Assembly: GCA_964016885.1 (NCBI GenBank)
Contig: OZ024756.1
Location: forward strand, 31,062,001 to 31,126,000
Direction: 5' to 3'
Source: Eledone cirrhosa
Taxonomy: Eukaryota
Length of the DNA: 64,000 bases
Positions 629 through 48,304 of the stretch are shown here, piece after piece. The first letter of the stretch is position 1. The number at the start of each line of letters is the position of its first letter. The position numbers and the translations under genes were made by a program. Under the pieces are notes generated by a model, which was not told the origin of the DNA, made no database searches, and saw only the letters and a list, made by a program, of their open reading frames with translations.

Positions 629-2144
629 CTTTTGGCACACTGAGATCTGTATATTATGAAGAGTTTAAAGAGTGAAAGGTGAATTGTGAGCTATAGGAAA
701 TGTTATCAAGCAACGCATTAGAGAGATGATTCTGAGTAGTGTAAACAAAAATAAAAAGACGAAAATAAAAGAAAAACAATACTAAGAAATGAAGCAGTCT
801 GTAAGTCTTTATATGCTTATTCTACATGAGAGATACAACAATCAAATCACCGTAAAATCACACATCCCTTTGACACCAAATTTGAAACCGCCTCTAGTTT
901 TAAGTTGTTTATTCTAAACTTTTCATGTCCAAAATAGCTGAACCGCCCCTGGTACTAACTATCATACGAAACTGTCAAAATATCGAAATTCATCTAAATC
1001 TAAAAAACCTTAGCTGTTTATTTGTTTATGTGTGTGAGAATGTTTAGTAAGTTGTGTTCCAAACACCAGCTTAATATTGAAAATGTTAGTAATATCACTA
1101 AGTAACTGCAAATCCTTGGTTGCTCTGTGCTGTAGAAATTTTACGAAGCACATTAGAGAAGTGCGAATGTTGTAAAAACCCATTTAGAAACAAGATAACC
1201 TCTAGCCCTTTATATATCTTTGTTTAACATGCTAGATACATCTACATTAAATTACACAACATACTGCCTGTAACTCTTTTGATACCATGCAGTCTAAAAA
1301 CCGCCCCTCATTCTATAATGTAAAACTCTTAAAAATAAAATATTATCGACATTTAAAAATAAACCGTCGGAGCGTCAAATGAAGATCTTAGTAAATTTAG
1401 TAAATTTGGAATGGGGAAAATAAATGTGAAAAAAGTAGCCTGCAGCCCTTAGAGAGATTCAATTCTCAGTAACGGCTACTGACCACTTTTTTCCGTCTAT
1501 AAAGGTACTTTAAATGATTTTCTATTCTAGTATTTATAGCAAGCAGCTGTGTGCGCAGTTATTTTTTGCGTTCAAGATTTTCTACATTTACTAAAAGGTT
1601 TATTTATATTTATCTAAAAAGAAAACTTTCCTCGTATTTTTCTGTAAAAATCTATATTAGTATATAGTACAGACTCCAGCTTAGTAGTGAAAAAATATGT
1701 TACATTACTGAATCCCTGTCTTTTCTTTATTAGTGTGAGATATCGCAATGTTATCAAGCACATAGGAATGAGACAAAAGATATCTCTCTACATGGTTGTT
1801 CACTATGCTAGATATAGCATTTAAATCTCCCTCAAATCTCACAGTCTCGTTCAATAAAGTAAAGAAACCGAGGATATAATACATCTGAACATTTTGAATA
1901 GATAATGTTGTTTGATCGCAGTTCTGCTTTTGATCTTGGATGATCTAAAGCTTAACAAGAAAAATAACAAAGTATATATGTATTCATGCATATCTGTGTA
2001 TATATGTATGTAAATATGTATGTATATATGTATACATATATGTATGTAACCGTGTATATATGTATATATATATATATATATATATATATATATATATATA
2101 TAACAAAATATAAAACAATCAAATCTTAGTTTAATACATTTATT

Positions 2145-2191
2145 TGCTGACAATTGTTTCTTCCAGACAAATGTCTGGATTCATCGGAGCA
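2145..2191 (-). ncRNA. Type I hammerhead ribozyme motif, variant core CCGAUGA (family A1)
   Basis: Minus strand reads tgct CCGATGA atccagacatttgtctggaa GAAA caattg TC agca, then AATAAA. Stem I tgct/agca, stem II tccagaca/tgtctgga, palindromic stem III caattg, GUC site. (TA)n follows ~48 nt later. Confidence 0.7.
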
Positions 2192-2792
2192 TAGAGAATG
2201 TTTAAACAGGCAATTAAAATCCTAGTCTTCAGAACATTTATATAGATACATAACTATTGTCAGTGTCATTTAAAAGGATGTTATGCTACAGAAAACACAG
2301 TATAAGGAGCAATGGTGAAAAGTGAAATATTGAGCATATTATATATAAATATATTGTTTAAGGTAATACATGTGCAAAAGATACAATCAAAAAAAGATGT
2401 AAGATAAGATAGATAAAAGACATCATAGCATTGAAGAGCAGGTAATGTTAATGGTATATAATGCAAAAGTTAATAAAATTAATAAAGGCATGCATGAGGT
2501 AAGAGTTATATAATACATGAATCAAGCATATTTCATATAGAATGTTAAAGCATGTTAAAAGTGTTAGAAATGTGTAAAAAATGTTAAATGGCATGCAATG
2601 TGGTAGAGTAATATGTGGTCATAAAATGGATAGATGTTGAGTAAAGTATAATGCAAAACACGTAATTAAATTAAATATGTTATTGTCATTCAAGAATTTT
2701 TATGTATATATATACATATATATATATATTTCCCAAGGCTCTGATACAATCAACACCATAAACACAGAGCTGGCATATCTAAGAACTGACTA

Positions 2793-2848
2793 ACTGCCTG
2801 ATGAGGTCATAGCCACTCAATGGCTATCATTGAAATATATATAGCAGT
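2793..2848 (+). ncRNA. Type I hammerhead ribozyme motif (family A2)
   Basis: actgc CTGATGA ggtcatagccactcaatggctatcatt GAAA tatata TA gcagt, then aataaa. Stem I actgc/gcagt, stem II atagcc/ggctat, palindromic stem III. Homologous to 7259-7313. Confidence 0.85.
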
Positions 2849-2911
2849 AAATAAAGGATTATGAGTTCATGCAATTGACTTATGTTTCGTCACGATATAT
2901 ATATATATATA

Positions 2912-3021
2912 ATTATTGTCGCCTTTTTGCTTACATTAATTTCTCTATTTTCATTTATATATATATATATATATAAATGAAAATAGAGAAATTAATTTAA
3001 GCAAAGAGCCGCAAATAATTC
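2912..3021. repeat. Inverted repeat centred on a (TA)n tract
   Basis: ttgcttacattaatttctctattttcattta-(TA)n-taaatgaaaatagagaaattaatttaagcaa. The right arm continues as a dispersed repeat also found from 14592. Confidence 0.8.
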
Positions 3022-46228: not shown

Positions 46229-46342
46229 TCGAGCTCAGCTGTCGGGGTCTTACTGGTTCCTATTACCCACTCTACTACCCCAAGTATTGAGTACTTTGGT
46301 GCGTTATGGTCCACCTGGTTCCTTACCACATTTCCTTCGTTA
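46229..46342 (+). mobile_element. Family C, 5'-truncated copy between (TA)n tracts
   Basis: gagctcagctgtcggggtcttactggttcctattacccactctactacc...catttccttcgtta. Confidence 0.85.
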
Positions 46343-47661
46343 TATATATATATATATATATATATATAATGTATACATGTATAGATATGCATTCGTTTTT
46401 TTAATAACATTCCCATACATAATAGTGTTATGAGGGTAGAGCATTCTAGAAACCAATCAACTAATTTTCTGCGGCGTGTGAAATCAACACGCAATGACTG
46501 GATATTGAAGAGTCACGTGTACACAAGACGTCATTGTCAGACTAAATAACTGCGACAAAATGTGAAAATGTGTAATATATAATACTCGGCTTTTGAATTG
46601 TCCATTAGATAGTCTTACTAATACTTTTTCTCATTGTTATATATATGCATATTGAATATTAGAGAATAATAGAATGGAGCACAGGCTCAGAAATTGACAC
46701 ACACACATTCATGTATATATATATGTGTGTGTGTGTGTGTGAGTGTGTGTGTGTGTGTGTGTGTACATGTGTGTATTTATATACATATATATGCACACAT
46801 ATTGAAGTATATATAAATGTATATATATATATAAATATATATATATATATTGTTATACTTTGGGAGGGTCATGTTGCCAAATACAGAAACGATATATATA
46901 TATATATATATATTTATATATGTGTATATATATATGTATATATATATATAATTGTATATGTATATGTGTATATATATATATATATATATATATATATATA
47001 TATATATGCGTGTGTCTATATATATATATATACATATGTACTTATATTCATACATTCATATATGCATATATATATATATACATATATATATATATATATA
47101 TATGCATATATATATACATATGTATATTCATTAATTCATATATACACAAATATATATATATATATATATATATGTGTGTGTGTGTGTGTAAAGGTAAGTT
47201 CTACACGTGATTAATAGCTAAACACAGCTACACCTAAGGACATTATTTTTGCTAAAGAAACGATTCGGAGCGAATTACATAACATAATTCACAACATAAT
47301 ATCGTCTATATTGAATTTATTTCCACACGGAGACCTATGAAAGAATATTATATCTCTATGGCATAATATATTTCTATCATAACGACTCATGAAATATTAT
47401 TTTATGAGATATTCGGCTTGTTATCATTATTTGGTTGAAAATAATGAAAAAAAAAAAAAAAAAAGTTTTGTTACTGATTGGTGGAGTCTCTAGAATGGCG
47501 GTCTTATTATTTATTTTGTTGTTGCTGTTATTGTTGTAGTTGTTACAGTATCTTTGAAATTGTTGCATTTGTTATTGTTTAAAATCAAGTCTGGAAGAGA
47601 TTTTTGCTTCTTCGTTATAAAAGCCATGTCTAAAATATCATATTCAATAACACATGACATA

Positions 47662-47752
47662 CTGGTTAGTGTGTTTGTCTAACATCCATATAGAGGTGTG
47701 TTCGATTCCTCGCAGATCGTTTTGTCCTTGAGCAAGATACTTTATTTCAAGA
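47662..47752 (+). mobile_element. SINE family 2 degraded head
   Basis: tggttagtgtg..gttcgattcct..tgtccttgagcaagatactttatttca. Confidence 0.65.
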
Positions 47753-47845
47753 TAATCCAATCATTTCAGTCCTATTCTAGAAGTTTATAATCTCTATTAG
47801 CAATTGCCATAACATAAGGGTGGGAAATAAATATATATATATATA

Positions 47846-48304
47846 TACGATATTAAACAAATGGAAACTATATTTATAAAACCTTATTTATTTCATTATA
47901 TATATTTCAGGGATATCATATTAAAAATATGGTATGCCTTCCTCAGACAAAATACAATATATAAACCGTTTTATAAATAAATTTGACATACCTTAAACAG
48001 TGCAACTTCCATTTAAAAAGTTGATTTGGTACCAAATCAACTTTTTAAATGGAAGTTGCACTGTTTAAGGTATGTCAAATTTATTTATAAGACGGTTTAT
48101 ATATTGTATTTTGTCTGAGGAAGGCATACCATATTTTTAATATGATATCCCTGAAATATATATAATGAAATAAATATGGTTTTATAAATATAGTTTCCAT
48201 TTGTTTAATATCGTAAACCTACTCCAAAACCTGTTGAGTGCTTTTATATCAGTTATAAAATATTTACTCGTTGTAACCCAACAATTTTAAATAAAACTTT
48301 TGCA
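47846..48304 (+). mobile_element. HHR-bearing fold-back element (family B): 185-bp-arm palindrome 47846-48215 centred on ggtacc, plus ~88 bp tail
   Basis: No spacer, ~2 arm mismatches, (TA)n on both sides. Homologous to 7497-7880. Confidence 0.9.
48107..48172 (+). ncRNA. Type I hammerhead ribozyme motif (mirror copy on minus strand 47889-47954)
   Basis: tattttgt CTGAGGA aggcataccatatttttaatatgatatccct GAAA tatata TA atgaaata. Confidence 0.85.

Follow-up and report, generated by a model that had tools for sequence, protein, structure and literature searches.

The 64,000-nucleotide (nt) stretch of the Eledone cirrhosa genome analysed here (contig OZ024756.1 of assembly GCA_964016885.1, positions 31,062,001 to 31,126,000; hereafter the window) is AT-rich, animal-type DNA with 195 tandem-repeat rows, and 20,757 of its bases, about one-third, are masked as microsatellite. 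Comparison of the window with itself and a palindrome scan revealed short inverted-repeat insertions (fold-backs) and solo ends lodged within (TA)n tracts. They are terminal remnants of 60-570 nt and belong to at least seven families, which we label A to H after the initial annotation wherever its labels could be inferred. The model we propose, and hold with good confidence, is that the fixed near and far ends of these insertions are likely to be those of 5'-truncated, head-to-head Penelope-like elements (PLEs), probably of the Hydra clade, whose RNA is predicted to hold two set start points for the reverse transcriptase (RT).

A relaxed descriptor of the type I hammerhead ribozyme, applied to both strands of the window, fits 12 arms, against a single match in the reversed sequence that served as control. 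The cuts given below are predicted cleavage sites, self-cleavage being predicted from the motif alone. Complete motifs occur in families A, B, D, E and F, while the arms at 3432 and 44111 and every family C copy hold the 3' half only, without the CUGANGA core. A related ribozyme form is common to A, its relative A', B, D, F and H, and the core is invariant over the seven aligned copies of the predicted hammerheads. At its gathering score, Rfam found no hammerhead in the whole window, its sole match being tRNA-like; between 1900 and 8000, down to E=10, it returned no hammerhead either, just hairpin and microsatellite noise.

The fold-back arrangement is seen in A, both copies of B, D, G, E and C. 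In family A (6902-7467, plus strand) a short arm at 6902-7124 (minus) faces a long arm at 7140-7467 (plus), with predicted cuts after 6956 (minus) and 7308 (plus), the near junction, or site 1, at 7362-7364 and a tail at 7365-7467; the centre, 7124-7154, carries a short palindrome duplicated in tandem over 14 nt, as if slippage had occurred while the arms were being joined. The A' sequence at 2730-2894 (plus), 85% identical to A over the ribozyme, is a solo short-type end with its predicted cut at 2843 and (TA)n from 2895. The first copy of family B (7497-7876, minus) comprises a long arm at 7497-7752 (minus, cut 7635) and a short arm at 7753-7876 (plus, cut 7826). The second (47848-48303, plus) comprises a short arm at 47848-48030 (minus, cut 47897) and a long arm at 48031-48303 (plus, cut 48164), 98.9% identical to each other, with site 1 at 48213-48215 and the tail at 48216-48303. 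Family D (3559-3983, minus) contains a perfect 322-nt palindrome at 3655-3976, its long arm being on the minus strand (cut 3693, tail about 3645-3559) and its short arm on the plus strand (cut 3938). The family G fold-back (43935-44290, plus) has a putative cut at 44111, site 1 at about 44160-44163 and an uncertain long-arm end. Family E is represented by a copy at 58192-58383 (plus), which folds back at the ribozyme core and has cuts at 58294 (plus) and 58211 (minus), site 1 at about 58313 and a tail of about 70 nt; by a copy at 30079-30239 (minus), whose long arm (minus) begins within helix III while the short arm (plus) holds the whole ribozyme motif; and by a solo short-type end at 40359-40420 (minus). 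The remaining solo ends are the long-type end of family F at 20232-20500 (plus), whose complete motif has its cut at 20348 and is followed by the tail motif at +62 and a (TA)-rich junction at +151, the short-type end of family H at 2101-2195 (minus), whose core has a single mismatch and whose cut at 2149 is followed by (TA)n at +46, and an H-like end at 3413-3475 (plus; ribozyme 3' half only, putative cut 3432).

The fold-backs of family C lie at 58753-58944 (minus), where the long arm is on the minus strand and the short arm on the plus strand, with site 1 between +17 and +20 and the end of the long arm at +97, at 25902-26095 (plus), at 17783-17963 (plus), where the short arm extends further upstream than the long one, and, in diverged form, at 25696-25872 (minus). 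A solo long arm at 46231-46340 (plus) is truncated within helix III. Another, at 49779-49917, is followed by two tandem duplicates at 50004-50142 and 50249-50387 (49779-50387, minus) and counts as one insertion, not three: a unit of 225-245 nt made of the family C copy, (TA)n and flank is tandemly triplicated over 49779-50600 at 99-100% identity, either by local duplication or as an assembly artefact. The hammerhead 5' half is never present in this family (17415-17622, 17783-17963, 25902-26095, 49779-49917, 58753-58944), which may be a non-autonomous unit of about 137 nt with a fixed 5' end; alternatively, the loop of a long helix II may make the RT stall or fold back.

Measured from the predicted cut, the 12 arms that fit the descriptor fall into two classes. 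Seven of them reach (TA)n after 22, 45, 46, 49, 50, 51 and 54 nt, the other five after 134, 138, 139, 151 and 159 nt, and no arm ends between the two classes. The initial annotation had listed eight near-constant distances of about 50 nt, and these we reproduced within a few nucleotides: 46 (2149), 51 (2843), 45-48 (3938), 48-53 (7826), 49-51 (48164), 54-56 for 7308 as mapped from the short arm at 6956, 49-52 (44111) and, by hand count, about 43-45 (3432). They represent five families, however, and not eight independent cases. Chance would rarely produce them, the next (TA)n run beginning 44-56 nt downstream for 2,766 of 107,105 non-microsatellite positions (2.6%) as against six of the 12 descriptor arms. 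The shorter distance ascribed to families C and E was also recovered, at 16-24 nt overall: the short arms stop between +16 and +20 in family C and between about +16 and +23 in family E.

What stays nearly constant is the spacing to a sequence beyond the junction. However far the near end is from the ribozyme motif, a conserved ACTC..GAGT motif begins 2-9 nt past it. In six families the cut-to-junction distance is 56, 51, 48, 52, 19 and 20 nt, whereas junction to ACTC is, in the same order, 4, 5, 4, 7, 8 and 5 nt, and GAGT follows after another 2-31 nt; per insertion (n=8), the standard deviations are 2.1 nt for junction to motif and 16.6 nt for cut to junction, the latter with the cuts as they stood before shifts of 5 nt in E and 3 nt in G. 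The motif was initially spotted by eye and the anchoring then tested: when the families are aligned on the junction, TACT and ACTC are common to all six within 14 nt, while alignment on the cut gives a 4-mer at a common offset in at most five, and random anchoring yields a 4-mer common to all six in 0.045% of 20,000 draws. The extended form TACTC..GAGTRC, a predicted stem, is found five times in the window against 0.82 expected, each time in a long arm (48220-48241, plus; 7368-7410; 7558-7580, minus; 3614-3641, minus; 58321-58342), and all five long-class descriptor arms carry the same motif at +53 to +62.

The recurrence of about 50 nt invites the idea of a ruler, in which the near junction would be set at that distance from the ribozyme cut, for instance by a protein seated on the cleaved 5' end. 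Five families at 43-56 nt agree with it, as do 10 of 24 consensus ends of Hydra-clade elements that lie 30-48 nt past the cut and, by hand count, an AC-rich run about 46-55 nt past the cut in the template of the lizard element PAc. The Hydra consensus range, at 30-63 nt, is nevertheless wide, the likeness among A, A', B, D, F and H is partly one of common descent given their related ribozyme form, and ribozyme-dead PAc RNA gave the same product in vitro (PMC11167929). The cut distance is not invariant: families C and E, at 16-24 nt, keep their near end equally close to the ACTC..GAGT motif. As a mechanism, a near-constant distance from the cut is wrong, and we judge such a ruler very improbable. 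In our model, 50 nt would be the length of a ribozyme-to-tail-stem spacer that related families have inherited and loosely kept.

Other parts of the initial annotation fared better. Both family B short arms do end at ..atcg-TA, although they fold back at different points upstream of the GAAA box, one by about 67-93 nt and the other by 122 nt, and the ends do coincide with internal TA dinucleotides: at seven of the eight near junctions in paired arms, 2-5 nt of TA or TAT are shared with the long arm, against a background of 21% of positions (118/560; binomial p about 1e-4), so that the near end mostly sits on a TA/TAT island. This same overlap, in a window so rich in microsatellite, could mean that the shared ends are secondary, (TA)n having been seeded or expanded at internal TA islands or one arm trimmed by recombination between such an island and the microsatellite. 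Yet longer TA islands in the same arms, in helix III and upstream of the core, are unused as ends in 12 of 12 arms, the pattern recurs at the same motif over six unrelated spacers, and the far end is fixed as well; we give secondary ends even less credence than the ruler.

The long-arm end is programmed too, which the earlier annotation had not noticed. Both family B copies end it at the same base, and eight of nine family C long arms, or six of seven once the two tandem duplicates are removed, end at the same ..gt-TA. The tail that this end delimits measures 70-103 nt in A, B, C, D and E and about 120-135 nt in G, whose end is uncertain, and it is confined to one end in all eight paired insertions measured. 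The fold-back point had been described as variable. It is so in A, B, D and G, where it precedes the GAAA box by about 41-157 nt, but not in E, where it sits at the ribozyme, nor in C, where eight of the ten arms shown start 14-19 nt upstream of GAAAC.

Reads from outside the window bear on family B, for which the long arm 48031-48420 was used as the target of four coded runs (X9, X1, X6 and X5). In X9, raw restriction-site-associated DNA (RAD) reads of another sample under the same species label, 33,520 reads aligned. Among the loose-end piles listed, the largest is at 48215, where 4,788 reads run into (TA)n; another, at 48202 (1,385 reads), meets (TA)n about 12 letters further on and is the same junction in variant copies. 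A further 10,883 reads continue into the tail, main-strand depth falls from 22,288 to 10,214 across 48186-48238 with a gradual decay upstream, and of the 11 joint rows nine switch strand, at points dispersed between 48081 and 48243. Contig depth, which is not copy number, drops 8- to 9-fold over the junction, from 1.01 million to 125,000 in X1, possibly the window's own source, and from 1,395 to 151 in X6, another organism; we regard this as suggestive. X5 gave one record over the family B stretch, and the family B pattern had no match in metagenome contigs. The claims that independent copies reuse one breakpoint and that the second junction is programmed are thus borne out, since the two copies in the window and the raw reads of X9 converge on 48215 and TA microhomology is enriched there.

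What, then, are these insertions? The standard PLE unit has an inverted 5'-truncated copy and, at one end, a tail of 30-40 bp (Craig et al. 2021, PMC8557442), with an example of 31 bp in Arkhipova et al. (2013, PMC3846280), and pairs of minimal hammerheads on opposite strands, 100-700 bp apart, were described by Cervera and de la Pena (2014, PMC4209133). The window shows several traits of endonuclease-bearing PLEs: a motif of the minimal, type I hammerhead kind, an inverted 5'-truncated copy beside a direct one and a tail at one end only. Its 12 descriptor arms all end in (TA)n, the target of the Hydra clade. Unlike in the canonical unit with its inverted pseudo-long terminal repeat (pLTR), target-site duplications are unreadable inside (TA)n. 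The hammerheads resemble the minimal metazoan PLE ribozymes of PMC4209133 in their CUGANGA and GAAA boxes, their long helix II with an unpaired 5' base and their minimal palindromic helix III; the accessible part of that paper leaves the insertion ends unmapped, and families C and G differ in having no recognisable 5' core. The fixed breakpoints are likely to be the already described PLE tail boundary.

The attribution to the Hydra clade comes from non-coding features, because the window has no protein-coding part of such an element. None of its 187 open reading frames is recognisable by eye as a PLE protein with telomerase-like RT and GIY-YIG endonuclease, as expected since all copies are terminal remnants. 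The RT and endonuclease signatures of Hydra (DKT, RWK, no CCHH, a CxCX5C linker) belong to that coding part. Full-length PLEs form partial tandems (pLTR-ORF-pLTR), and the contigs aligned to family B were short. In PMC8557442 and its files S1, S2 and S7, the Hydra clade, one of PLEs with a C-terminal endonuclease, occurs in cephalopods, targets (TA)n and has a type I hammerhead with a short palindromic helix III near the 3' end; one consensus carries a 5' inverted copy, and copies of a cephalopod family are said to "terminate at same site". Relative to the cut, 10 of the 24 consensus ends lie at 30-48 nt and 11 at 88-153 nt, 21 in all, with two at 63-70 and one at 355 (one 5'-located entry omitted), two classes that appear to match those of the window. 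A CTC..GAG.AC sequence follows the TA-rich stretch: by eye, the coral, sea cucumber and copepod consensus 3' ends have GCTC..GAGC, one of them bulged, just past it, and the full-length sea cucumber consensus opens with this motif and ends 46 nt past its own cut. Our own yardstick for the clade is this 3'-end geometry together with the tail motif, the latter compared by eye on three long consensus ends and one 5' start, and the insertions of the window resemble the published consensus sequences in both. The exchange of ACTC/GAGT for GCTC/GAGC is a two-sided change, again judged by eye, so that the predicted stem covaries against three Hydra-clade elements. Differences are that the families of the window are known without an open reading frame, and that PMC8557442, in the parts seen, does not describe long tails or a tail stem. 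The ribozyme motif of the published cephalopod Hydra family has no convincing match in the window (three weak matches against 1.2 expected), and five short motifs sought in the available supplement of PMC8557442 gave no telling match, the likeness having come from reading file S7.

Two other affiliations were considered and set aside. The Naiad clade lacks canonical hammerheads, and complete motifs are present in A, B, D, E and F, families C and G, without a 5' core, lying outside this judgement. Non-LTR retrozymes (bioRxiv 10.64898/2026.07.22.740005) are likewise non-coding, carry type I hammerheads and descend from the pLTRs of PLEs, but they form head-to-tail hammerhead tandems, whereas the arms here are head-to-head or solo, and the sole tandem, 49779-50387, includes flank and has no core.

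How PLEs form inverted units and choose microsatellites was an open question in PMC8557442. The closest experimental system, and the only PLE reconstituted, is PAc, a Poseidon element of Anolis carolinensis (Frangieh et al. 2024, PMC11167929). There, AT-rich targets are cut on both strands, the tail lies between two internal RT starts measured in vitro downstream of the ribozyme, genomic ends fall on them, and ribozyme mutants leave the insertion product unchanged. The stated RT start is at +111-118 and the cut near +29, the AC-rich run of our hand count lying upstream of that start. The insertions of the window differ in their (TA)n target and their longer tail.

In the model that we hold with good confidence, the GIY-YIG/RT protein of the element would bind the structured tail and nick both strands of the (TA)n target. 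One target 3' end would prime at the far site to yield the long arm with its tail; the short arm would come from the second 3' end, priming on the TA island that immediately precedes the tail stem. Both copies would stop early and be joined at a short self-complementary sequence, giving an inverted repeat; solo ends of either type would be single primings rejoined to (TA)n, and ribozyme cleavage would not be needed to set the near junction. We further propose, tentatively and at rather less than an even chance, that Hydra-clade PLEs have an undescribed structured tail of 70-120 nt whose first stem sets the RT on a TA island 2-9 nt upstream. The (TA)n target would then act as primer by annealing, as in telomerase, to a template built into the RNA, and a dimer of the protein would start synthesis from both target strands, each at its own site, thereby making the inverted unit.

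The same PLE origin could also operate with single priming, the RT starting at the far site, the cDNA snapping back and its copying being halted just before the tail stem by the endonuclease nick or a bound protein. The arms of one insertion share private letters (nine columns split by insertion, none by arm type, five otherwise), short palindromes lie at the centres of B2, D, A and G, Craig et al. (PMC8557442) explain the tail by an endonuclease that resolves an intermediate, and the D. virilis endonuclease requires the tail for cleavage (cited in PMC11167929), all of which would suit such a route. Either arm, however, may extend further upstream: the unpaired 26-nt centre of B1 is part of the long arm, as snap-back would have it, but the centres of E1, E2 and 17783-17963 derive from the short arm, contrary to what snap-back in one direction, from the long arm, would lead one to expect. 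There are also solo ends of the short type (2843, 2149, 3432 and the 40376 region), and the two starts of PAc were measured in vitro. We favour dual priming because of this mixed centre polarity and these solo short ends, and consider single priming unlikely, though far from negligible.

Several observations weigh against our model, in its mechanism or in its assignment. The identical arms fit single-strand snap-back equally well. Folding favours the tail stem just modestly, the pair probability of ACTC/GAGT being 0.14-0.91, and 0.02 in F, and the stem letters never vary within the window. PAc differs in that its starts are AC-rich and without homology to the target, as against seven of eight junctions here with a 2-5 nt TA overlap. 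The tails are two to three times longer than the published 30-40 nt. Six Hydra-type protein motifs gave no match in six frames of the window, so that both clade and PLE identity rest on non-coding features. The RAD reads, finally, are not independent loci, 11,260 of them starting at one place that is probably the RAD cut; there are 266 further loose-end rows beyond those listed, and the far end is masked as repeat.

Several further repeats accompany these insertions. At 2912-3064 and 14592-14677 another family, in which no hammerhead motif was found, is inverted with (TA)n in the middle, as two ends facing each other, and more short inverted repeats without a recognised ribozyme motif adjoin (TA)n at 40191-40277, 37794-37923 and 40479-40775. 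A degenerate hammerhead-like stretch at 6620-6765, with one mismatch in the core, a clean helix II and a poor helix I, lies about 95-100 nt before (TA)n and is possibly another family. Short fragments between TA-rich runs are common to 17637-17755, 29284-29444, 20156-20218 and 5995-6047, in an order and orientation that differ at the four places. The tRNA-like Rfam match (31.2 bits) is a dispersed repeat at 58059-58168, 22705-22915, 26100-26319 and 50645-50837, likely the tRNA-derived head of a short interspersed element (SINE). A SINE-like repeat of about 190 nt is dispersed in about 20 copies of 70-93% identity (4322-4414, 10016-10240, 16269-16450, 38880-39486, 42130-43250, 51037-56960 and 60979-62937); its look is reminiscent of octopus SINEs. 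Lastly, a tandem array of a unit of about 99 nt at 59128-59757 has an inverted partial copy about 750 nt away, at 60508-60674.

In conclusion, the junction is programmed beyond what chance would produce and is probably accounted for, in the main, by the tail boundary already known from PLEs; the whole pattern is their known tail signature, not a new rule or a new kind of element. The new detail would be tails of about 70-120 nt that open with a predicted stem. Our literature search, to which older subscription papers and Repbase were external, gave no description of such tails or of a tail stem; the curation guide PMC8969392 and PMC9977147 served as context only. Young, short, two-ended insertions of at least seven families are plentiful in this genome, and the tail stem is a candidate RNA landmark that may predict the RT start site across phyla. 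Such a landmark would give a precise mutational test, and a way to annotate PLE remnants and their ends.

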